NCBI GenBank assembly: GCA_043805415.1
Contig: JAZDHZ010000007.1
Span: 93,786-157,785, forward strand
Direction: 5' to 3'
Source: Candidatus Omnitrophota bacterium
GTDB taxonomy: Bacteria; Omnitrophota; Gorgyraeia; B26-G9
DNA length: 64,000 nucleotides
Shown here: positions 2,839 through 56,000 of the stretch, piece after piece
Position numbering within the stretch: position 1 is the first letter of the stretch
Layout of the letters: the number at the start of each line of letters is the position of its first letter
Translations under genes and position numbers: made by a program
The notes under the pieces: generated by a model
What the model saw: the letters and a program-made list of their open reading frames with translations, nothing else
Told to the model about the DNA's origin: nothing
Databases searched by the model: none

Positions 2839-3841
2839 TTTCGTTAAAGTTGCAGTTAACCAATGACTGACAGTTTTTTCGGCACAATTTTATCTCAGCG
2901 CGCGCCTGTTCTGCGCTCTGACTAAACCAGAGCTCACTGATCCTATTGCTTTTTATATTTCCGATTGCCTGTTTATCAAAGCATATATGCACGTCTCCGG
3001 TAGGCGTAATATTCAGTGCCCGCAGATCAAGATGACAATGATTTTGCTTTATAAAATCATTGGGCTGGGAAAAATATTTACTGAATACGGCAAACTGATC
3101 TTCCGGGTTTTCCAGCACAAAATCCGCGCGCAAATCAGAGCTGTTTTTAAGTTTTGCCAATTGGCACATTGTCTGCCGCACACAATCCTGATCATTGGGC
3201 CATAAAAAAGCGTATTCTGGTTTTTCATACCATTTATCATCAAACTCAGTATTGAACGGCTGGGTAATCGCCTGATAGCCTATGCCGTGAATGCGTTTAT
3301 CTTTATTGGCCCAAAGCGCGACTTCCACCGCGTCTTTGATATTATAACCGGATATTGTGGTTGTAATATCAATAATTATCCGCGGCGCGTATTTAGCCAG
3401 GCTTGCTATAGCCGCCGCAACTTTGTCAAAACTGCCGGGCTTACCGCGGAGAAAATCATGCGTCTTGGGATTAGCTGAATCCAGAGATATGGTTATCTGG
3501 TTTAATCCGGCTTTGGCTAAATCCTCAGCCATCAGGTCATCGAGCAGATAAGCATTTGTTGCCAGCAAAGTCTCAAAACCCTGTTCACGCGCCCAGCTGA
3601 TCAGTTCAATGGTTTCTTTTCTCAGCAAAGGCTCGCCTCCGGCAAAATTAATCCGCGGTTTTTTGGCCAGGCACATCTGCCCCAGATCAGTTATAAACGC
3701 TTTCCACTGGGTAATTGAAGGCTCCCGCGGATCTCTATATTCCACGGAATTATGCCATTTAAAGCACATCTTACAGCGCATAAAACAGCTCTCAAGTAAA
3801 GCAATACAGCAATATGTCGGTAATTTTTTGTTTTCATTCAT
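2819..3841 (-). CDS. Radical SAM / SPASM-like domain protein (paralog 3 of 4)
   Basis: CxxxCxxC = C-FMR-C-KM-C. Also 'AGGEPLL', 'SLDSANPKTHDFLRGKPGSF' and the C-terminal Cys cluster (CHLD...C...CRKNC..NC). Confidence 0.85.
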   Translation of the reverse strand: MNENKKLPTYCCIALLESCFMRCKMCFKWHNSVEYRDPREPSITQWKAFITDLGQMCLAKKPRINFAGGEPLLRKETIELISWAREQGFETLLATNAYLLDDLMAEDLAKAGLNQITISLDSANPKTHDFLRGKPGSFDKVAAAIASLAKYAPRIIIDITTTISGYNIKDAVEVALWANKDKRIHGIGYQAITQPFNTEFDDKWYEKPEYAFLWPNDQDCVRQTMCQLAKLKNSSDLRADFVLENPEDQFAVFSKYFSQPNDFIKQNHCHLDLRALNITPTGDVHICFDKQAIGNIKSNRISELWFSQSAEQARAEIKLCRKNCQSLVNCNFNESEEYVK

Positions 3842-3865
3842 GGAACTTTGTATCCTTGCAACTAG

Positions 3866-3968
3866 CTTATTCCTCGGTCTAGAATCAATTATTTCTGCTC
3901 ATTCTCGCCTTACATCCTGTAAGGCTCCGAGGATAAATCTCTGATTTTGCCAGTCCTAACAAAATCAG
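3866..3968 (-). other. Structured intergenic element (three nested/adjacent stem-loops) between rSAM paralogs 4 and 3
   Basis: Outer imperfect stem ttattcctcgg(3867-3877)/ccgaggataa(3927-3936). Inner perfect hairpin gccttaca(3907-3914)-tcc-tgtaaggc(3918-3925). Adjacent hairpin ctgattttg(3941-3949)-10 nt-caaaatcag(3960-3968). Confidence 0.4.
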
Positions 3969-4084
3969 GCTTTAAACCCGCAAAATAATTATTCTAGCCC
4001 TTTTTACTTTATCCTTTTTACTTTTTACTTCCATCTGTGTTCATCGATATTTTTTATTAGTGTTTATCACAAAAGCTTCTGCTT

Positions 4085-5125
4085 TTACTTTTCAAATTTA
4101 CAGTTAAGCAGGAAATGACAATTTTCCCGGCAATTATTAATTTCTTTTCGCACTAAATCCGCTTTTACGCTCTGCCACATTTCCCGCACTGATTTTTCCC
4201 GCACATCTCCCAAGCATTGATGGCGGTAACACATAAACATATCTCCTACAGAGCTGATATGAATCGCGTGATCAATATTACAGCTGCTCTGCTTCACATA
4301 GGTATCAGGATCAAGCAAATAGGTTTTAAACGCCTGGATATGCTCAATGGGATTACTAATCTTATAGCCTTTTGTTTTCAGCTGAATAAGCTGATCTAAA
4401 ACCGCTTCCGCCTGTTTATAATCCTTAGGCCATAGTTCATTAAACGCCGGGTCTTTCCACCACTGGGTTTGAAGTTCCGTATTATTTGGCTGCATCAGCA
4501 CCATCAGATAAATCATATTGATTTTATTATTTTCCTGAACCCAGTTAACCAGATCAACCATTCCGCCCAGCGTGGGCTGCATAATAATCGAGCAAATACT
4601 GATCTGGATATTAGGCGCGTACGCGTGCACCAGATCAATCGCGTTCATAACCTTATCATAAACCCCGTCAACTCCGCGCAAATAATCATGGGTTTTTCTA
4701 TTAAGACTGTCCAAAGAAATATTGATATAATCAAGCCCGCTGTCGCGCATCTTCTCAACCATTGGTTTATCCACAATGAAGGCATTGGTGGCAATATTGG
4801 TTTTAAACCCCAGTTCATGACAGAACTTAACCAGATCAAACAGCCATGGCACTGTAGTGATTTCTCCTCCCCCGAAATTAATAATAAAATCATTGGGCGC
4901 GATTTTACGCAAAGAAAGAGCGCTCTGTTTCCAGTCGTCAAGCCCCAGCTGTCTGCGATCATCTTTAATGTAAATATCCTGTTTCCACTTTTGACACATT
5001 CTGCAGCCCAGCATGCAATCATCGCAAATACTAAAGCAGCAAAATGTCAGTTTCGGGATCTGGCTGATATTTTCCTTTCTATTAGTAATATTATTCATTA
5101 TTAATCTCCGTAATTGTTTTAACAT
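4085..5125 (-). CDS. Radical SAM / SPASM-like domain protein (paralog 4 of 4)
   Basis: CxxxCxxC = C-MLG-C-RM-C. Also 'SLDSLNRKTHDYLRGVDGVY' and the C-terminal Cys cluster (CNID...C...CRENC..NC). An alternative, better-supported start is the ATG at 5098 (MNNITN...) with GGAG 7 nt upstream. Confidence 0.85.
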   Translation of the reverse strand: MLKQLRRLIMNNITNRKENISQIPKLTFCCFSICDDCMLGCRMCQKWKQDIYIKDDRRQLGLDDWKQSALSLRKIAPNDFIINFGGGEITTVPWLFDLVKFCHELGFKTNIATNAFIVDKPMVEKMRDSGLDYINISLDSLNRKTHDYLRGVDGVYDKVMNAIDLVHAYAPNIQISICSIIMQPTLGGMVDLVNWVQENNKINMIYLMVLMQPNNTELQTQWWKDPAFNELWPKDYKQAEAVLDQLIQLKTKGYKISNPIEHIQAFKTYLLDPDTYVKQSSCNIDHAIHISSVGDMFMCYRHQCLGDVREKSVREMWQSVKADLVRKEINNCRENCHFLLNCKFEK

Positions 5126-5128
5126 TAA

Positions 5129-8100
5129 TCATTCCTTATCCTTATTAACTTTAATCTTTATCTTAAATTCAATTTTCTTATCCTGAACAGTAATATTTTT
5201 AGTTTTGCTTAATATTACCCGGCTATTATGATTCTCATCCGTATCTTTAATAATATTATCCCAATCAACACTGCACCAAGCTTCCCAGCTAATTTCCGGC
5301 AATTTACTGTTTTCCGCGAAAACTTTCATCTTATTCTTAGACTCAGCGACCTGACGCCAAACATCCGGATTGCTCCGCGGCGCGAACATCCCGAATTTCC
5401 GGGGATGTTCAGATACCTGCCAATTAACAAATTCTTTGTTCAGCATTATTCCCACGGCTATATCTTCAATCAGCGCAGGATCCAACTCGAAATAAATCCG
5501 CCATAATATTTCATTATCATCACCGTATTCAATTTCCTGAGTATGAGCGATTAAACAGTCTGCTTTGAATTTCAGCCGGATCATATCAGCGGTTTTATCA
5601 AGCTGTAATAATAACTGGGATGAATCAAACCAGTAATCTTTTGTTTTCATGGCTGTATACAGGCATAAGCCGTTAGTCAGCTCTTTGCGGTCATAGAACA
5701 ATCTTATTCTAGCCTGATCCAAGACAAGTTTAATTCTGCCTTTGTTCAGTTCCTTTAGCGGCAAAGTTTTTTTCTGAACACAATTATGGTTAAAATCATT
5801 AATTTTTTTCTCTTCCGAAGAAAGCAGAATATTTGCTTTAAATATTTCATGCTTACCGGGTTCAAGAACAAATGCCTGTTCCGCGAGCAAACGTTTAACT
5901 CCCAAAACAATAATCTCTTTGTTCGCTGGCTTAAATATCTGCAGCAGCCATTGCCCCATATCAGCTAAAGGAGCAAAAGCAATTTCCGCTGACTGTTCCG
6001 CGGCTAAATCAGTTTGTTTTAAAACAATATACCGGCTGCGGTTGTCGATAAGGTCTATGGCTTGAAATCCCTGGTCATGATCATTTAAAGCGATTACTCC
6101 CTTACCTAGTTCGCTCAGCCAATGCCGAAAAACTTTGGGTAAAAACATATTTATTGTCAGCGCGTATATTGCTGTTTGTTCTAAAACTTCCAGTTCCACG
6201 ATCCAGGAAATATATCCCGCTTTTTCCTGTAAATACCAGTTCTGGACAAGGAGGGGATTATTATATGTAATTTTAATAAAAAGCGTATGCGGATCCTGTT
6301 TTTTAATCTGCCAGTGCCCCTGGAAAGAATCAAATTCATCATAAGCGCTGACGATTACTGCCAAACCGCAGTCAGCGCTGATCAGCTTATTTTGATAATA
6401 AAGTTCTGTTTTTTGCTGCTTGGCTGTTAATCGGCAAGTCTCTGAACAAACTATAGAAAAATCTTGTTCGCAGTATTCATCTATTCCCTTTTGCCAGGAT
6501 TCCGGATCAACGATATCAAGTTCGGCGCTAAAAACCGGCTTCTGATCGTTTAATTCTCCGGGGTTTAATTTAGCCTGAAACTGCAGGTTCCTTGAACGAT
6601 TTGAATACTGCAGCAAGGGAGTATAAGCAAACTCGCTTAAACTATTATGCTTAAACAGCACGGCGCAGCCGGCATCATCAGTACAGGCTCCCAGCAAACA
6701 GCTGTTTAATTCTGTAAGGTCAATAAGCTTGATTTCCTGCGCGTCATTGCTGAACCTATTTTTTTCATACGCATTAATCCACTGCCGGAATCGCGGATTT
6801 AGTATGATTCCCACTTTATATTCAAAAGCATCATTTAATTCAAGCGGGTCTAAATATACATTCCAAATAAGGCTATGCTGTTTTAATTCAATCCGCCAAG
6901 ACTCTTTTACCTTGGGAAATTTTCTCTGAATGCTTACCAGCAGATAATTATCTTTTTTTTCAATTTTTTTGGCCACACCATGCGATTCATACCAGCGCTT
7001 ATTTAAAAATATTCCGCTGCTAAACCCGGCTAAAGCCGCCGTAATCTCGGTCTGTCCGAAAAATAAACGAATCCTGTCTTGGCCGCAATCAATACGCAGC
7101 GAGTCATTGCCCAGGAGATTAGCGGAATTAAATTTATCTCTTTGCTTGGCAATAAACCGCTGTTTTTCCTCAGACTGTTCAATAACCATCATTCGGCAAT
7201 TAATTGACGCGCTGTCCTGACTGCTGATCCGAATCCGCCGGGTACTTAGTTCCTGGCGGCAATTATACAGATCAATCCGGGCATTATCATCCGCCTCGGC
7301 AATAAAATGCTTATCCTGCCGCGCCTTACTGCTTAAGCCGACAAACCCGCATTTATTATGTTTTAAAATAACCTTTTCGTCAAACTCAATCGCGGGTAGA
7401 AAATCATTTTCCTGAGTTAATTCAAAATACGAATCATAATCATCAGTCAGATCAGCGTCGATCCAGATTAAGCTCTGGCTCTGTTCTAGGCTTTGCCCAT
7501 TTTTCAGCGACATTTTAAGCAATAATTCCTTGCCGGTTAAAATTAAATTTAATCTTACCTGAATCTGTTGCGTAAAAAATTCAGAATCAACCGCGAATTC
7601 CGCCTCACTGATCTTTGTGATTTTCCATTTTCCCTCAAATATATTATAAACATGATTTTGCTGTTTAAATCCGCAAACCAGTCCAAAGCCTTTGCTTATT
7701 TGTTCTGTTCCGTTAAAAAGCTGAAAACTTTTTTCTTCCAGCTTAAGCGTTAAACTATCTTTGCTGATGCGGATTTTTTCCTGCTGCTGCCTGAGCTTTT
7801 GTTCCAGCTGTTTTTTATCCAGCAGCTGAATCAGGGTTTTACATACCGCGCTTTGTTTCTGGTCTAAGAAAACATGCGTTTGGATAATATTTGCCGCGAA
7901 ACCTTCCTGGCGCTGGATCAAACCAAAACCGCGCTGCTGGTCGATATTAAAATTCGCCCAGACCGCGGGGATATCCGAATCAGCCGCGGACAATACCAGT
8001 AAAGCCTCCTTCTGGTCAGTACGATACAAATCCTGGCATTGCTCAGTGGTAAAATTTTCCGCGGCCCGCATAGGTTTTATTTTATCCGCGTCCAGATAAT

Positions 8101-44000: not shown

Positions 44001-47000
44001 AATTCCAAATCCCAGGCCAAGAGAACTGGTAAGCGAGCTGGCCCAAAGCATTCCGTAACTTCCAACAACATAACCCATAAAAATATTATACAGCACTGTG
44101 ACAATCATTGTCTGGCGCCAAAAACGTTTGGCCTTTAATGTCTTTAAACCAGCTGGGCCTTTTTCCGTGCCTTTGGTCCAGAAACGGTCTTCTTGTCCAA
44201 AATTAAAATTAGGATTATATTCAGAATTAAATTTTTCTATTCTATCTTTATATTCAGAAGGTAATAATTTCAAAAATAAATTAAGATAATCCGGCTGAAA
44301 TACTGTTACAATAAACGCAATAATCACAATCACACTCACCAATAAAACACTTGGAAAGAATAACGAAAGCAATCCACCAATAATAATCGTCGCGACAGTT
44401 GACAAAGCTCCGATAGGGCTAGTAAATTTATTCAGCCAATTAGCAACTTTAGTATTTTTAGCAATAGTCTTATTCGCCAATGACACAAACGGAACCATGA
44501 GTTCCCCAAAGAAGGCGATCCAGCCAATTTTATACATTTTAAGATATGTTTCATTATCTTTCAGGGCTTTATTCACTGCTGGTTTAAGCTTTGTATCCAC
44601 CAAATTCTGTATAAGCTCAGACGCTTTTGCCTCAGCGTCTTTGGCTTCTTTTGGTGTTTCTTTTAGCGGCTTTTTGGGAAGCGCGCCTAGTTCTTTGCTC
44701 AGATCAATATCCAGTTCTTTGATCGGGTCCTCATAATAACGGAACAGATCATCCATATCCTCTTGCCCAAAAAGTATGGTTGGATCAGCCAGCAATCTGC
44801 CGGTTACAGTAACTTCTTTCCTTCTATATCGCTCCAGCTTGCTCTGAATCTGATCAATAATAACCCTTCTCCAGAAACCAGCATGCAAACGCATCAGACT
44901 GACAATCTCGCTTTGTTTATCAACCTTATAAAGCGCATATGATTTGCGCATCAGGTAGCGAATTAATGGTGTACGACCAGATAAAGAACTGCCTAATCCA
45001 TAAGGCTGGCGATAAGGCAGCATAAACACTCTTTCCCACAGCTTAAACCGCAAAAGATTCGGAGTTTTCTCACCTTCAAAAGCCTCACTTTTCATAGCAT
45101 TCGCTTTATCCAGACCGATTAATTCAGGTTCCTCTATCTCAAATTCCTGATCATAAGTACCGCCTTGGATTTGCCTTATTCCATAAGGATTTTTTATTAA
45201 AACAGATAAAATTTCAGCCAGGCGTTCTCTGACGATACGATCGTATTCAGCTGTAAATTCTCCACGTGTATCAATATCAGCAAAATATTTATTGAGGTAT
45301 GGACTAAAAGCCGCGTCTATGCATTCTTCAATAATATAATAATCAATTGCAGAAGGGATTCTCTCATTATTTTGCAGTTTTTGGATAAGATCGTTAATTA
45401 CAGCTTTAAATTGTTCAAGGGTTAATAATCCAAGTCCTTCTTTATCATCTAAAAGGTTTTTAACAATTGAAGCAATCGGCGGAGTAAACATCGCGTCAAA
45501 GGAATCTTTTGGTTCCGGCAGTTTATCAGACAAAACTTTATTAAGTTCTTCAATACCCTTATCCGCGGCTAAAACTATCTCCTTCAGCTCAGCTATTACC
45601 TGCAGTCTTGATTCGCCGGAACGGGGCGGGGCGCGCAAAAGATCGCCTGAGCCGAAAATTGTATTAAGTATTTTATAATCAATACCCTGCTCATTTAAGA
45701 ACTTCTTTGCCTGATCAAGAGTTGCAAATCCTTTTTTCTTAAGATCATTAGCCGGCAATTCCTGAGCAAATGCCGTTGCCGCTGATATTGCTATATCTTT
45801 GTCAACTCCGGCAGCAGTCAACATTTTCTCCAGCTCTTTTTCATTTGTTCTGTTCAGCTGCTGCAGCCTTAAATTCGCATCATCATAGAAATCAGGGATT
45901 ATATCAGCAACCACAATATTATCCAGTATACTTGCCTTGGTTTCCGGATCAACTTCTTTTTTATCAAGAAATTCACCCAGAGCAGCTTCATCCATAAAGC
46001 TTTTTTCTTTGCGTCTTTGGTATACTATTTGGCTTGCTATATATTTTGCATTGGTTTCTGCCTGCGATAAAAGTTCTTCTCTTTGAGCTTCACTCAATTT
46101 ATCATCTTGCGCGGACTGTTCTATTTTTTCCTTATCAAAGATGAGGTTTACAATCTCATCTTCGTTCATGAGATTGATATTGTTCTTGCCTTTTTTCTTT
46201 GCCTTGTCTGCCTTTTTCTTCCAGACCAAGCCAGTAATAACATTAGCACCTACTAAATAAACCGCTAAAACAATAGGAATCACCAACCATGGAAAATAAA
46301 AACTAGTAAATGGAAGTCTGACTTTATAACTAAATACCTGTACAAATTTAAACCCTAAACCTTTGGGGCCAATAGTTACTTCCCGCATTTGACTGTCTTT
46401 ATCAAGATATTTTATTTTTACTCCATCGCCCTGAAGATCATCTTTCTTTTTCTGCTCGTTTGCCTGAGCTAATAATTTCTCAAATAATTTTTCGTCTCTA
46501 AACTTCTCGCCTTCTAACTTAATATGAAACAGTTCCAGTCCGCGTTTGCCCATATTGGCAGTCTGACTGATAACATTATTCTGAAATTTATCAAAATATA
46601 GCCACCAAAGCTGACTATTGATCATCTTTTTGCCTTCAAAAGGCACTGCTTTATCAGAAAAATGCTCTTTTTGCGACAATCCCAAACTCTGATGCATGTT
46701 TGCCCCTTTAATCAGCGGGCTGCCATTGCTTAAAAGCAGTGCTTTCTGTCCGCTTAACGAGGACAACCAGGAGGACAACCAGGACGTGCTGGTTTCGCCA
46801 ACTGAATCGGTAAGCACAAATGTATATGCATTCTGGTCATGAATACTATGATGGATTTCATATGGATGCCAGTTTTTGAGCCCGGCATTAAGATTATCGA
46901 TAACTTCCTCAGGATTATGTGAAGTATCATCACGCAATGTTGCCACCAGGTTCTGGCGCTCATCAAAAACATCGATTCTCCATCTGGGATCTTCACCCAG

Positions 47001-50000
47001 CATTTTCTTGGATATCTGGAACTTGATTCTGCCATCAGGATAATACAATGTTCGTACTTGAGCCAGCTTATCTTTGCGCATATCTTCGATATCATAAACC
47101 ATAGTCGCGTCAGGACGTAAGAAAAGATTTTTTGAATTAGCCCGAGGTTTAAATTTAGCTTTAAAGTCTTTAACTATCTGTTCTGTTGATAAACCGCTTT
47201 GCATTAAAGCTGGATTAAAATCAAAGGTATTGCTGCCCTGTGATAATCCCATATTTTTCTCTTTAAGATACTCAAGAAAAGTTACATATGTTTTTTCAAG
47301 CTCCATCAGCTTAATTTTGTCCTCGGGTCCTGACTGATAAGTACGGTCAACATAACCGTTAAATATGATTTCAAGCTCGCCTTTATTATTCTTGATTTCC
47401 ATCCACATCTGAAGCACTTTCGGGATATCCGCTGCATTAGCATCCTTAGGAGCAACAGCAATTGTCGCTGTCCGTTCCCTCATGCCTTTATCAAGCAGTG
47501 TGATAAATGCTTTATCTTTAGCATTGGAAGGATCTAATTGAATCTTCATTTTTCCCTCAAGACCAGCAAAGAAAGCAACCACATCCGCATCATCTTTAAA
47601 CCCGCCTGTCTTATATTTCTCATCAATCATCTTATCAACAATATCTTCCGCAGTACCCTGTTCCGTGCTTGTTATATCAATTAATTCTTTTATTAGATTT
47701 GCTCTGGATGCCGGCAAACGGAACAATACCCACGAATCTTCAAACTTTCGCTCCATCTTATCGGCTTTTGATTCATTTATTCCTAAGGCAGCGTTTTTGT
47801 CTTCAGGAACAAGTGTCTTTATAACCGCATAATCAACAGCGCCTGTTTTTCTGGCAAGATTAATTGCTTTTGAATAGTTAAACAATGTCCAGCCTTGTTC
47901 AGTTAAAAAAGCTGTTGTAACATCAGCAATTCCAAATTTACCATAATCAGTATCAAATCTTGCCCGCAATTGCATTATGCCTTTAAAAACTTTTTTAGCA
48001 TCCCAATATCCCCAGATATGATTTATAACTCTTCCCAATCTATCCTTTGTTTTGCGATAATGCACATCTGCTTTTGAGAAAACCTTATCGCCATCTCTAG
48101 TGAATTCTGATTTCCAATACTCGATTCCTTCATATTGTATACTGCCTTGCTTATCAAGATACCTATCTATGGAGGTCAGATGGTCAGCATACAATGCCTC
48201 TTTTGCTTTAGCTTCATCACTGTATCGTTTAAGCCATTTAGCTTGCTCTTTTTCACTTAGCTTATCCCAGAATTCCTGCTTTTTCTTAGCTTTAAACAAA
48301 GTTTCTTTTGCCGCAGCTTCATCACCTTTAGACTCTTCAAGTAATTTGTTTCTGTCTTCAATACTAATCGTATCCCAAATTGCTTCTTTTTCAATCTCAA
48401 TAAGCATTGACCTGCTGACTTTTTCCTCAAATAATCCGCTGCACATACCAGCAAGCTGATCCTGAGTAAAAGCCTTAAGATTAAACTGATCTTTCTTTTT
48501 ACTAGCTGCTATTATATCTTCAGCTATATATGCCGGTGAGATAAACCTGAGGATTTCTTTTTGATCGCTGTAATCTGATTTCAGAATACCCAGAACAGCT
48601 TTATGGAAATTATCAGCAACAATAGCTTCGCCGCCAGCAGCAGTTATTGCCGCGTTAAAAGCAGCGAGTTTTTCACCACTTAAAGTTTCCCTGTATACAT
48701 TTAAAGCCGCCCTTGCTTTGTCAAAAGTTGTTTCACCTAAACTCTTAAGAATGTCCGCGTTAGAGCGGAAGAAGAAAGACTCTCCTCTATTGGCAATACC
48801 AGCCGCATCCAGATCATCATCTTCAAAATAAGAAAATGACATTATATTTCTTTTGAAAGATTCGTACCTTAACGCCTTTTCCGACGTCAATAAACCATCA
48901 AATAAGATAATAATTCTGCCTTTATTATCTTTTACTTCCTGATAATCAAGGTTTCTCTTTCGTTGGTGCATATGGTAAATAACATTTCCTCTTTTATCTA
49001 TAAATTCCAAGTCTGATTTAGGCACATTTGACCCGGAATTAAACGGCGCGATCTGTGATTCTGTGATTAATGATTCTCCCTGATCAAATTCATGATTGAT
49101 ATTATAAGCAAAGTATTCTAAAAGCACATCAGTCACGGCAATTGTCAGCGCCTTCTTATCAGCTTTCAAGTTTGAAAGCTTCTCAAGTCCCGCGATTATT
49201 TTTTTGGCGTGATATTTCCCCTGTGTATAGTTTTCTAATTTAGCTTCAATCAGCTTAGCATCAGTTCCGCTGTTAATTATAATATCCACGATTTCAGGAG
49301 CAAGCTGATTAAAATCAATTTCTTGTTTTTTGTTTTCCTTGTTATCAAAATAAAAATATGATTGAGAATTAAAAGCAAGACCTAAAGCTCCTAGATTCTC
49401 CTTGTATTCATCAGGCCAGTCATAATTTAATTTAGAAACCCAAACCCAAATAAAATTACCATTAAATTCATATCCTGAATATTTAACCCGGATATTGCCC
49501 TTATTATCCTTTAAACCTTGCCATAACAGTTTACTCTTAGCATCATAGATTAAGGCCTTTACATATCCAGCATCATTAAGGTAATCAGTTTCTTTAAAAA
49601 CCTGCATGATAATATTTCTAAAATCATTATCTTTTAAACCTTTAAGCTTAAGCTTATTTAACTCTTCCGCAATGCTCTGAGCAGTAATAAACGCGTTTTC
49701 ATTGATTAATTTTTCTGTTGCCCGGATAATTGATTCATGTAAAGTTTTAAGTGTTTCAGCGTCAACAGTTAGTTTTAGTTTTTCTAATATTGGACTTAGC
49801 TGCTGCATCTTTAAATTAAGCAAACTACTAACTTTAAACTCATCTAAATTTTTATATTCATTGGTATCAAATTTCTGTAATATTGATAATGCCAGTAATT
49901 TATTTTCGCCTTGTTCCAATAAATTCATATCAGGATTAATCCCATAGTCATAATTCTTATCATATAAATACGTGCTGCCCAAAGTAGCTATATCAAATTT

Positions 50001-53000
50001 CCCCAAACGCTGCATCGCGCTTCTGATTTCAATACGCATCAGTTCTGGGTCTGTAATCCCCAGAGTTTTCCAGGCTTTGGCCATCTTTCCGGCAATAAAA
50101 TCAAATAGTCTAGGGTCATCATCATAATAGAATCTGGTTGATTTTTGCGGCACAAATATTCCATCTATTTTTTTACCGTCAATAGAAACAAGTACGCGGC
50201 CATGAGCATCTTTCACTTCTTGCCAAACAAGCAGAGTTCTCTTATTATCCAGCTCAACAATCATCTCGCCTCTATTGTTGAAATAATCGCTCAACTGTGT
50301 TCCCGCTTTGCCTTTATGCGGCTTCAGTACAGAAACTGAAACCGGCATGGCTGGTTCTTCTTTTGTGGTTTTATCAAGCAAATAAGTTTCACCGGACATG
50401 GCAAACCCAACCCGGCCCAGATCATTCATAACCTTTTCATTTACGCCTAATTCACCGAACTTATCCTGCTGATAAACATAATGGTATTTTGTTACTTTTA
50501 TCGGATAGTATTTATTGTCTTTGCCCTTCTCATAATCATATACTTTAATCGGACGCCCAAAATTATCTTTTATTTCTTCCCAGGTAAGCTGCTGTTTAAG
50601 ACGGACATTCTGTATCGAGATATTTCCCTCTTTACTGAAATAGTCTTCCACTTTAATAAGTTTGCTTGCCTTAACAATCTCGGTAAGCTCCGCTTGTGTG
50701 ATTTTAACTTGATATTTAGTCCCTAATAATTCTGTTAATGCTTTAACCGCTTCAAGAAATTTCTGCTCATCAGATTGTTCCAAAGCAGATACTTTATTTT
50801 GAATATCCCTTAATAACTCTTTATTCTCGGGAGCTAACTTTAATCCCGCGATAATCTTGCCGGCTAGTGTTTCCATGGTATTTAATGTTGAAAAAGCAAG
50901 TACTTCTGTATCCTCTTTAGTATCTTGATCATAAAGAAAAGTAAAACCATACAAAGCAATATTCCGGCGGCCAAGCTCATCCATTATTTCCTGGGATTTA
51001 CCTTCTTGAAGCTTGGGCAGCTTCTTTTCCCAAGCATCAAGAGCTGCTTTAAGTTCAGGATGCGCCTTGCGATAGTTATTAAAGCTTTCATAATCATAAA
51101 AATAATATGTTTTCTGATTCCTGAAAAATTCGCCGTTTTTCACAACTCCATCAAATTTAACCTGTATTTTTCCTGTGCTGTCTATCTGTTCCTCCCAATG
51201 GAGATTATTTAAAACATTTTTCATTTCCACAAGCACTTCGCCGTTATTATCGATATAAACATCGCGCGTCTTTTCCCGGCCCTGGACATCTCGGTAAGTT
51301 TCCTTCCTGTGTTTTTTAATCCGGGAAACCGACATCAGCGCGGTTTGCTCGTTCTTCTCCTGGTCATAAATATAGGTAGCGCCAATAAGCCCTACTCCAA
51401 ATTTTCCGTAGCGGTTCAGGTCGCTGACGAAACTATCATTAAACATATCCTGTCCGGATTTTATATATTCATCAACAACCGCTTTAATATCCGCGTCTTT
51501 GCCTGCTTTTTTCCGATAAGTTTCCAGGGTTTTCTTAAATTTGTCGCTCAGGATATCCCAGCCTAATTTTTCATATTCAATAATCAGCTGCCTGTAAAGT
51601 TCCGGGTTTTCTTTGCTAAATTGCTGAATTTGCTGCAAGCTGTAGAAAAAGCGTGAGGCCTGCGCCTTTTCAAAAACTTTTGTCTGCACATCAAGTTTGC
51701 CCAGGTACCGGATTATTGTTCTTCCCAGATTATCAATAAGGTCCTGACGGGTCATCCGCTGGTTAGCATTGGTCATCTGAACAAGTATGTTCCCCTGGTC
51801 ATCAACATAACTCTCTTTAATTTTTTCCGTATGATCTTTCTCATCAATATAAGCCTTTTTAAATTTCACCAGGAATGAATGTCCGACTAATCCGCCGGTT
51901 TTACCGGTTTTAGCATCGTAAGTATGGGTTTCTCCAATCATCGAAACACCATAAAGCCCGAGAATATCCATGTCCAGAGCAAAACGCGCTTCAATCCCGT
52001 ACTTTTCAGCAAGGTCTTTCTCATATTTGTAGTGGAATGTCGTTACTTTTTCAGGAATAACTCTTCCGGTTTGTTTATTGAATTTTCCGCTGTATTTAAT
52101 TTTTACGCGGCCATTACCGTCAATCACCTGCTCGCTGATTTCTTTCTTTTGCGCGTCTTTATTTAAGACCTGAACATTGCCGTCTTTGGTTAAATATTTG
52201 CCGTTCGCGTCTGCTTTTACCACTGAACCAGCGACCAAATCAAAAGGCACCGCTGCTTTTTCATCAAAGCTGAAAGTCGCGCCAATAAGCGCGATGTCAA
52301 TTTTCCCCTGACGATTTAACTCTGCCAGCAATTTCTCATCTTCTATATTGATATTTAAAGTGCTTAGTTCATCCTTAAGCTTTTTATAAGCATCCGGGAA
52401 TCTCTTCTTAAATTGATTCAACTGGTTAACACTATAAAAAGAGTGGGAAACTTTTTCCCGCACAAACTGCTTTGTCTGAGCGTCAATATGCCCGTAATAA
52501 TCTACTGTCTTTCTTCCCAGATTGTCGACTAATTGCTGCCATACCAGCTTTTGCTTAGGAGCATACATCTGCAGCAATACATTACCTTCATTGTCAAAAT
52601 AACGTCCGTCTTTAAACGGCTGGGCAACAGACCTTCCCACTGGTTCATCACTTACTCTTATTCCCCGGCCATTTTCAAACTTATACAAATAAGTTTCACC
52701 GACCATGGCTACACCCTGCAATCCCAAAGTGTCCATTGTATCGGGATCAACACCAAAAGCATCAAACTGCTTCCGCAGTTCCCTGGACTTGGCATCTTCT
52801 CCGCCGGGATATTCATAGTAAAAGGTGGTTTCTTTTTCCACGTTAAAACTCATACCTGTTTGTGAATCGCGGGCATCAATCTCAAAGGGCTTGTTTTGTC
52901 CATAGGGGATTACCTGCAGCCGGTTTTCTTTACCAGTAGCTTCTCCCATGCTCCCATCATACTTTTTAATCAAGCGGCCGTATTGGTCACGCACTTCCAG

Positions 53001-56000
53001 AAAACGTTTATTTCTTTCGTGGTCAATAACCAGTTTTGTTGACCATTTGGAATGTTTATCCCAGTAAACCGTATTTCCTTTATCTTTATCCGCAAGCGGC
53101 AGCACCTTTGAACTAAGCACAGGCTTATCTTTATCCCAGCGCGGTTTTTCCAATGTGCCGGTATTTACATAGGTTTTACTTTCCTGCTCTCTGCCCCATT
53201 GGTCAAATTTAATTCTGGTAACATATTTTTCATTAAAAGTCATTACCGGCAGCTCATAATCTTTATATACTTCATAAGTTACCGCTTTAGAATCCGGATC
53301 AATAACTTTTTTAATAAGTATCGGGCTCTTTATCTTTACAACTTTTCCTTTGTTTTCTTTGCTAACTCCTGCCGGATCCTCAAGGTTTTCATCATAAGAA
53401 ACTGTTTCAGTTCTTTTCAGTTCTTTTCCTAATTCAGCATCCTTTCTCACTTCACCGGAGTTGTTAATATATACCTTGCTTTCAGACTCAAGATCATACT
53501 CATTGTATTGCATTACAACAATTTTATCTTTTGTGATTACTCGCTCAAGTAAGCCGCGTTTAAAAACCCGCATTTCCCAGTCATTAGTTCTTCCGTTTTC
53601 TTCTTCGCGTATGTATTCCCGATGGAAAGGAAATTTTAAAGTAACTGTAATATCGCGTTTTTCTCCGTTAATTTCAACTGCCTGGGAGCTTTCTTTGGGA
53701 ATATGAAATACCCAGCGGTCGCGCATAATCTTCTGCATTTGGGCAGCGTCGATCTCATCATTAGCCACCATTTGTTTTATTCTATCCAGGTAATCTCCCA
53801 ACGGGTCATAGTATTGCTTTAAACTTAATTTATCTTTTTCTATTGTCAGAGAACCAACTGATTTAAAAAAATCAAAGCAAACAGCGCTTATTTGCTGATC
53901 AGTTAAGAAACCTATTGCCAACTCCTGTTTTTGAGCAATTAATTTTTTAGCCAATAGCTGCGGATCAATAGTTTTTTCTTTCATCGCCTTAGAGACTTCG
54001 ATAAAAGCGCTTATAATTTTTGATACATTCGCGTTTGGCACTGTTTCTGATTTTACACCGGTTATTCTGGCAATGCTCTTGCGAATAGCTTCTCTCTTGC
54101 CGGAGGCTATTTCTAAAAGCCTTCCAGATTTTAAATCAGTAATAATCGCTCCGCCTTCATCTAAAGTTTTGTATTGCTCCGCGGCGTTCGCCTGCTCATT
54201 TTCTCTTTTTTCTCTTGAAACTTCTATTGCCTTAGCCGGGGCGATTAAAGTAACTGTAATTAGAGAATTGTCCTTAGCATTAAGATATTGATATACACCC
54301 TTGAATATATCCACGCTGATAAGCTTATCCGGCCCATATCCAGCAGCCTGCTGTTTTAAGCTAATAACCTGTTCTTTAGCTTGCGCGAGCTTAAGCTGTT
54401 CATCAGAACTCAGCTTTCCTGCTTTGCTTTTAAGTTCAAGCCCTATGATTTCCTGGTTTAATTCTTTAACCTGGTCTTCTAAATATTTCTTTTCAGAAAG
54501 AAAACTAAGCTTTACCCACCCTTTGTAATAAGGATGCGCTGCTTTTTTATCTTCCAGTTCTTTCTTTTCGCTGTCGCTTAGTTCTTCCCCGCGGGATTTT
54601 TTCTTTAAAAGCACAATAATTCTATCCAGGGTTTTTTCATCCGCGCTTGATGCTGTGAATGTCGTACCTTTAGTGTACTGGATGATCATTTCATTGATCT
54701 GCTGTTTTGCTGAACTTAAATTTTTCTCATCTTCTTTTGTCCAGGCAGCGGGATCAATCTTTTTCCTGGACTGGAGTAAATCAATTTTTAGCTTCTGATC
54801 AATAATCGAACTGTCAAACCCTTTTCCGCTGCTGATTCCCAAAGGAACCACGGGAATGCTTTCCGCCCTGCGGATATCAAAAGGATTAACATCGCTCATT
54901 GCCAATAAAATCCATAAAGAGTTCATACTGGCCAGGGAAACTGTATGAAAATTGCTATCCTTATATCTCTGGATCTGACCGTTTACCGCGTCCTTAGGCA
55001 AGGTGCTGTCCGGGAAAAATACCCCTAATTCAGTCCGAACCTCTAAAGGCTGGAGATTTAAGAGCAGGGTTTCTGATTTTTTCCTCTGCTCCTGGGCAAG
55101 TCCTTCCTGAAACATAGCTGTATAGAAATTTGCCATTATCTTGTGCGCTTTAGCTACATGCGCGGTCATTTCCGGGGATACTACTTCCAAGCGGCCGCCG
55201 AGGCCGGGTTTATCTGTATAGCCATAACCGGAAACCTCAACAACTTTACCCTTGTTATAATGCTTTGCTTTTATTACCTTGCGCTTTTCAAGAGAGCTCA
55301 TTATTTTTTCCGCGGAGTCTTGGCCAAAAACATAAGCATTGTCTTTATTACGTAAATTATTCAGGATTTCCGGCCCCAGCACAATAACCGCCAGAGCATT
55401 GACATCTGTCGCGTAAATATCGTCTTTTTCCCAACGCGGCTTATCCTTATCAGTTGAAGTATTCCGCATACCGCGGGAGAAAAATCCCTCTTCTTTGTTG
55501 TACACACTCGGCAGCCAGTTTAATATTTTTTCCGCCGCGTCTTTATAATCATCATTACCGGTTAAATCATAAAGCATCATGAACACGCCGAACGCGTTTA
55601 TGTTTTCTTCTGTTGATTTGCTGTCAAGCTGCGTAGGCCCTTGGCGAATGCCGCCGTCTTCATCCTGTAATTTAATCAGGAACGCGCCAAGCTTTTCCGC
55701 TAATTTCAAAGCATCTTTTCCTTTATTATCCAGTGATTCGCGGAATTCAGAAACTCCTGAAGAAGAAAACCATCCCGAATCTCCTCTTCCTTTAAATATT
55801 TGGTCTGCTTTTCCTTCTCTGCGGAAATCAGCAAGCGCTTTTGTCACCTTTTCTTTTTGGCGATCAAGTACTGCCTGCCATTTTCCCGCGGGAGCATGAC
55901 GCATTAAGTTTTTAATCAGCATCGCGGCTAGCCAGTTACTGCTGCCGGCATTATAACGGAATTCCGCGATCGGTTTTTTTGCTTCTGTAAGCAGCTGAGA

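Follow-up and report, generated by a model that had tools for sequence, protein, structure and literature searches.

A tandem array of diverged beta-hairpin modules in a giant Omnitrophota protein, with a local resemblance to RHS shells but no membership of the RHS family

Introduction

The giant proteins of Omnitrophota are among the largest predicted in nature and are mostly unannotated along their length. The closest described system is the 'antiparallel beta-helix', a tubule which, in the available portions of the preprint by West-Roberts et al. 2023 (bioRxiv, 10.1101/2023.11.21.568195), is predicted in the Archaeovorin and Dockerin types and consists of ~1,500 aa of a single chain with regularly interspersed alpha-helices. 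The published examples are AlphaFold2 models only, come from proteins other than the one described here, most of which have at least 30,000 aa, and have a hollow interior that is discussed there under the term 'giant hollow protein protrusions'. A second comparison set is formed by the RHS/YD shells, i.e., TcB-TcC of ABC toxins, T6SS Rhs effectors, and teneurins, which are built from hairpins of ~21 aa. The third comprises DUF3836 (PDB 4r03, 4r8o), the curved sheets of the LolA/RseB type, MORN-repeat proteins, and the single-layer sheet of OspA.

Here, we analyzed a window of 64,000 nucleotides from an Omnitrophota contig, in which a first-pass annotation had read positions 46900-53650, corresponding to aa ~3450-5700 of a minus-strand ORF, as ~2,200 aa of diverged RHS/YD-like modules.

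Results

An uncultured Omnitrophota bacterium carries the array in a protein that is anchored in the membrane and exceeds 8,600 residues. The N terminus of this protein is missing because the ORF runs open at the window edge. The ORF encodes a SecA-like helicase C domain, a TM cluster, an M23 peptidase, LysM, the module array, and further TM segments, along with weak matches to GH76-like and GT2-like domains, and is followed downstream by PilZ and pseudopilin genes. The array lies within a TM-free stretch (aa 936-5894) that it shares with the M23 peptidase, LysM, and the glycosidase-like region and is thus most likely extracytoplasmic. Since hydrophobic segments bound both ends of this stretch, a free-standing stalk would need either a return of the chain to the membrane or proteolytic processing.

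Each module consists of a ~60-aa core with the consensus Y.D..GN.lvqm...l.WqevkDn.GR.iv.YdG...f...k.t.f.Y.Y, followed by helices and then by LG..G.a..GeTY.YD. Both motifs from which the modules had originally been recognized, W(Q/E)E.(K/V)D..GR and G..(A/M).GETY(L/I)YD, are present. Nine clear copies were found between aa 3657 and 5097, and two degenerate ones further on, at ~aa 5311 and ~5531 (Table 1). The recurrence and low identity of the module therefore stand, while the proposed ten or more equal copies become nine solid and two degenerate ones, and the proposed length of ~150-250 aa gives way to an irregular module-to-module distance of 119-312 aa. The extent of ~2,200 aa was an overestimate: the solid array spans ~1,440 aa and continues weakly to ~aa 5584 (~1,930 aa), and the remainder is beta-rich flank without a module match.

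Table 1. Features of the giant ORF and its module array, in window coordinates
Feature	Residues (aa)	Position	Strand	Description	Basis
Giant ORF	≥8,657 aa	38025..63998	-	orthologous open frames in L001-L006	
N-side beta-rich flank	3470-3656	53031..53591	-	YD-like hairpin motifs; not the module itself	
Whole array	3657-5584	47247..53030	-	nine solid and two degenerate modules, helical inserts	
Module 1	3657-3777	52668..53030	-	partial core including RDQYGRLIKKYDG (aa 3669-3681); GVAMVGETYLYK at end	HMMs
Module 2	3798-3928	52215..52607	-		HMMs; strands and helices in model
Module 3	3933-4050	51849..52202	-		HMMs and model
Module 4	4062-4234	51297..51815	-	five-helix insert	HMMs and model
Module 5	4246-4377	50868..51263	-		HMMs and model
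Helical insert, modules 5/6	4378-4450	50649..50867	-		DSSP of model
Module 6	4451-4562	50313..50648	-		HMMs and model
Module 7	4570-4700	49899..50291	-		HMMs
Variable insert	4701-4802	49593..49898	-		helix predicted in low-confidence second model
Module 8	4804-4896	49311..49589	-		HMMs
Module 9	4997-5097	48708..49010	-		HMMs
Long insert	5098-5308	48075..48707	-	predicted helical	pLDDT ~45-85, model low-confidence overall
Degenerate module 10	5309-5368	47895..48074	-	HYRKTKDRLGRVINHIWGY ... YGKFGIADVTTAFL	weak HMM match
Degenerate module 11	5530-5584	47247..47411	-	MWMEIKNNKGELEIIFNGY	HMMs
C-side beta-rich flank	5620-5741	46776..47141	-	LYYPDGRIKFQISK..., RIDVFDERQNLVATLRDD	
Hydrophobic segment	5895-5923	46230..46316	-	ends TM-free stretch aa 936-5894	

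The repeat was recovered in several independent ways. In a blastp self-comparison the self-match masked the internal repeats, and phmmer was therefore run with 120-aa tiles, in which matches off the diagonal scored as high as 60 bits (e.g., aa 3799-3891 with aa 4063-4155). An HMM built from the ~60-aa cores of the array itself found eight full copies, starting at aa 3797, 3932, 4060, 4245, 4451, 4570, 4803, and 4996 and scoring 74-86 bits each, together with a partial copy that scored 32 bits (aa 3657-3690), and it matched very weakly at aa 5530; against 50 shuffles of the protein it produced a single match of 0.4 bits. An independent HMM, built only from modules of the distant relatives P0005, P0007, P0011, and P0013, scored 25-59 bits on each of these nine modules and detected weak copies at aa 5311-5368 (8.4 bits) and aa 5531-5584 (5.5 bits), with a top score of 2.8 bits among 50 shuffles. 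Between copies, the cores are 20-43% identical in amino acids and 39-56% identical in codon-aligned nucleotides. As the first-pass annotation had stated, the nucleotide copies are not near-identical: TRF found no tandem array with a period above 10 nt, and the longest direct repeat in the DNA is 47 nt at 70%. These results rule out assembly collapse and recent tandem duplication.

The array is conserved in orthologues. In six MAG contigs (L001-L006), five of which are titled Omnitrophota, the frame is open across the whole locus examined, for 4,593-8,019 codons, and orthologues with 47-55% identity retain 9-10 modules. Residues in predicted strands are 62% identical with 6% gaps, as compared to 37% identity and 19% gaps for predicted helices, and whole helical inserts have been gained or lost between orthologues. 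For example, the C-terminal ~85 aa of the variable insert (aa 4717-4803) can be aligned with L003 alone and fall in a gap in L001, L002, L005, and L006. Degenerate module 10 is strongly conserved among the orthologues despite its weak match to the module HMM, and the C-side flank, in which strands appear only in a low-confidence model, is highly conserved as well. The N-side flank gave only a very weak HMM match, and its last ~17 residues (aa 3640-3656) are modeled with strands.

An ordinary homologue search returned a single relative (P0001), and a search with the conserved C-terminal part returned none. An exhaustive search of 1.84 billion cluster representatives with the module profile yielded only 27 matches. 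Ten were looked up, of which six come from Candidatus Omnitrophota MAGs, one is labeled only 'bacterium', and three are without an organism name, so that every representative named to phylum among these ten belongs to Candidatus Omnitrophota. The region is shown to be an ancient tandem array in which 9-11 copies of a module restricted to Omnitrophota have diverged strongly.

The AlphaFold2 model of aa 3640-4640, for which the MSA held 8 sequences, reached a mean pLDDT of 83.7 and a pTM of 0.82. DSSP assigned 39% strand, in runs of hairpins, and 25% helix, with 6-8 antiparallel strands per block alternating with 2-5 helices in pairs or bundles. In this model, 6-8 antiparallel strands make up a beta-meander in each module, and a helix pair or bundle that differs in size between modules comes after it. 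The hairpins of the meander, which have tight D..G(R/N) turns, are Y.D..GN-lvqm, l.WqevkDn.GR.iv.YdG, f...k.t.f.Y.Y, and G.TY.YD. Within aa 3640-4640, the modules are confidently predicted to form one defined superstructure rather than beads on a string. The diverged beta-hairpin repeat that had been proposed from the sequence, with its helical inserts of varying length, is backed by both the repeat searches and the prediction. A second model, of aa 4600-5750, was calculated from a shallow alignment and is of low confidence (pLDDT 44, pTM 0.28), which limits the trustworthy structure to the initial ~1,000 aa.

Foldseek comparison of the model with the PDB gave RHS/YD shells as the closest solved structures throughout, and the top 22 (E 1e-13 to 3e-8) are T6SS Rhs, TcdB2-TccC3, YenB/RHS2, teneurins, Tse15, and SGS1. 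The beta-hairpin sheets of OspA and MORN-repeat proteins were also paired with the model, more weakly than RHS, and part of the RHS signal is therefore a generic 'stack of hairpins' signal. MORN/YwqK-type membership, raised by viral Foldseek matches, was rejected, as no Pfam family of the MORN type was found in the region or its relatives.

By sequence, the likeness to RHS/YD disappears. The Pfam RHS_repeat profile (PF05593) had no match at E≤0.1 in aa 3334-5999, eight family members had no RHS/YD match at E≤10 with PF05593 or NCBIfam TIGR01643, and the array flanks had no YD/RHS profile match at E≤1. Within aa 3300-6000, YD-repeat and Rhs-core families were absent from the NCBIfam results, and neither Pfam nor NCBIfam gave any family match there, including one for an Rhs-associated core, an aspartyl autoprotease, or a C-terminal cargo/toxin. 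When all PDB sequences were searched with the module profile (hmmsearch), chains of RHS, Tc, and teneurin proteins failed to appear even at E≤10. Finally, the module profile, built from 164 sequences, was compared by hhalign with genuine RHS repeats, represented by an alignment of only 9 rows from the triple repeats of PDB 7q97, 8cp6, and 8h8a. The probability was 0.5% (E 0.12), as compared to 97.6% (RHS against RHS) and 99.7% for the positive controls. On the Pfam, NCBIfam, PDB profile, and hhalign results, RHS membership was rejected. The suspected RHS/YD likeness is therefore borne out by the structural neighbors and by neither sequence nor profile-profile comparison.

Discussion

Our preferred explanation, to which we assign a probability of roughly 55%, is that the array is an Omnitrophota-restricted array of beta-hairpin modules of the West-Roberts beta-helix kind that serves as a rigid extracytoplasmic scaffold or stalk. 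We infer that the location is most likely extracytoplasmic and the role most likely structural. In such a scaffold, the conserved beta core would bear the load and the fast-evolving helical inserts would decorate it, and the whole could space those domains of the giant protein that act on the cell wall, or present them toward another cell or the envelope.

It is less likely, albeit compatible with a scaffold, that the array mainly serves binding, as a surface of an adhesin- or lectin-like kind, in which the modules, and the variable helical inserts in particular, would recognize a putative ligand on a host or prey surface, possibly in analogy to the beta-sheet recognition surfaces of MORN, OspA-like, or teneurin proteins. 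Fast-evolving inserts that are present in some orthologues and absent from others, and that differ in length, are as expected for interaction surfaces under diversifying pressure, LysM and M23 share the segment, and cell-cell attachment is proposed for giant Omnitrophota proteins. However, no carbohydrate-binding or adhesin profile matched, and the inserts could equally be neutral decorations.

We consider it improbable that the array is a hollow conduit, formed by a single chain, that would let substrates, enzymes, or downstream segments of the protein itself travel from cell to cell or cross the envelope. The SecA-like domain and the hollow protrusions described in the available preprint portions are consistent with such a role, but a lumen in an AlphaFold2 model is no evidence of function. 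An extended form of this idea is a long shot: the Omnitrophota-only hairpin block, convergent with RHS, might build a one-polypeptide hollow nanotube that bridges predator and prey envelopes and acts as a conduit or guide rail for SecA-like export machinery and wall-degrading domains. If true, the nanotube would be an organelle for secretion or attack made of one chain, to which none of the known secretion systems corresponds.

That the array is a true but highly diverged RHS/YD shell, a closed beta-cocoon that encapsulates and delivers a cargo or toxin domain, is very improbable. The Foldseek neighbors are of this type, but MORN-repeat and OspA hairpin sheets match too, and RHS_repeat, YD-repeat, and Rhs-core are absent from all Pfam and NCBIfam scans. 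The hhalign probability is far below that of RHS against RHS, the unit is of the wrong size, and the array is not followed by a recognizable cargo, toxin, or aspartyl-protease core. The low TM-scores of the model speak against a closed cocoon of the RHS type that would superpose on known shells. The array is most likely not a toxin capsule.

The idea that the repeat reflects composition or chance, or that it is an artefact of assembly or of frameshifts where the DNA is non-coding or mis-assembled, has only the low pairwise identity of the copies in its favor and is practically untenable given the tile scores, the empty shuffles, the recovery of the same copies with an HMM from other proteins, the frame that is open for 8,657 codons here and at the lengths given above in six other MAG contigs, and the absence of near-identical DNA repeats.

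For the window itself, the result is confirmatory rather than surprising. Its value is that the predicted 'beta-helix' part of giant Omnitrophota proteins now has a searchable sequence definition, namely a two-motif module with boundaries, a conserved beta core, and variable inserts, which is not an RHS repeat in disguise and was missed entirely by Pfam and annotation pipelines. The module profile would allow such scaffolds to be mapped across MAGs and could guide the choice of tractable fragments of 400-1,000 aa for expression and cryo-EM, which would test whether a single chain forms a hollow antiparallel beta tubule.

Of the known systems, DUF3836, LolA/RseB, MORN, and OspA are small domains or short repeats that lack the helical inserts of the array, have no sequence match to it, and form no continuous assembly of 1,000 residues. 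The RHS/YD shells share with the array successive beta-hairpins with D-x-x-G turns, which in those shells form a continuous antiparallel sheet, and are the best and only strong Foldseek matches in the PDB. Unlike their ~21-aa hairpins, the unit of the array is 119-312 aa long with helical inserts, and no Rhs-associated core, autoprotease, or cargo was detected with it. The array is thus RHS-like in local construction and no RHS family member by sequence or overall shape. The module definition given here (core and GxTYxYD motifs, 9-11 copies, 27 relatives) does not appear in the available portions of West-Roberts et al. 2023, and it is by description and context, not by sequence, that we infer the array to be the same kind of object as the beta-helix described there. 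Both occur in Omnitrophota, are of similar scale (~1,500-1,900 aa), and are RHS-like yet distinct. Indirectly, the conserved beta core and variable helices of the array would be in keeping with a hollow tubule that has its helices outside. The array sits in a giant protein that, like Archaeovorin as described in those portions, has a SecA-like domain, TM regions, GT/GH-like glycan-acting domains, and downstream PilZ genes. In addition, ~1,000 aa of the array (aa 3640-4640) are confidently predicted as antiparallel beta-sheet regularly broken by paired alpha-helices, the architecture that the published beta-helix is predicted to have.

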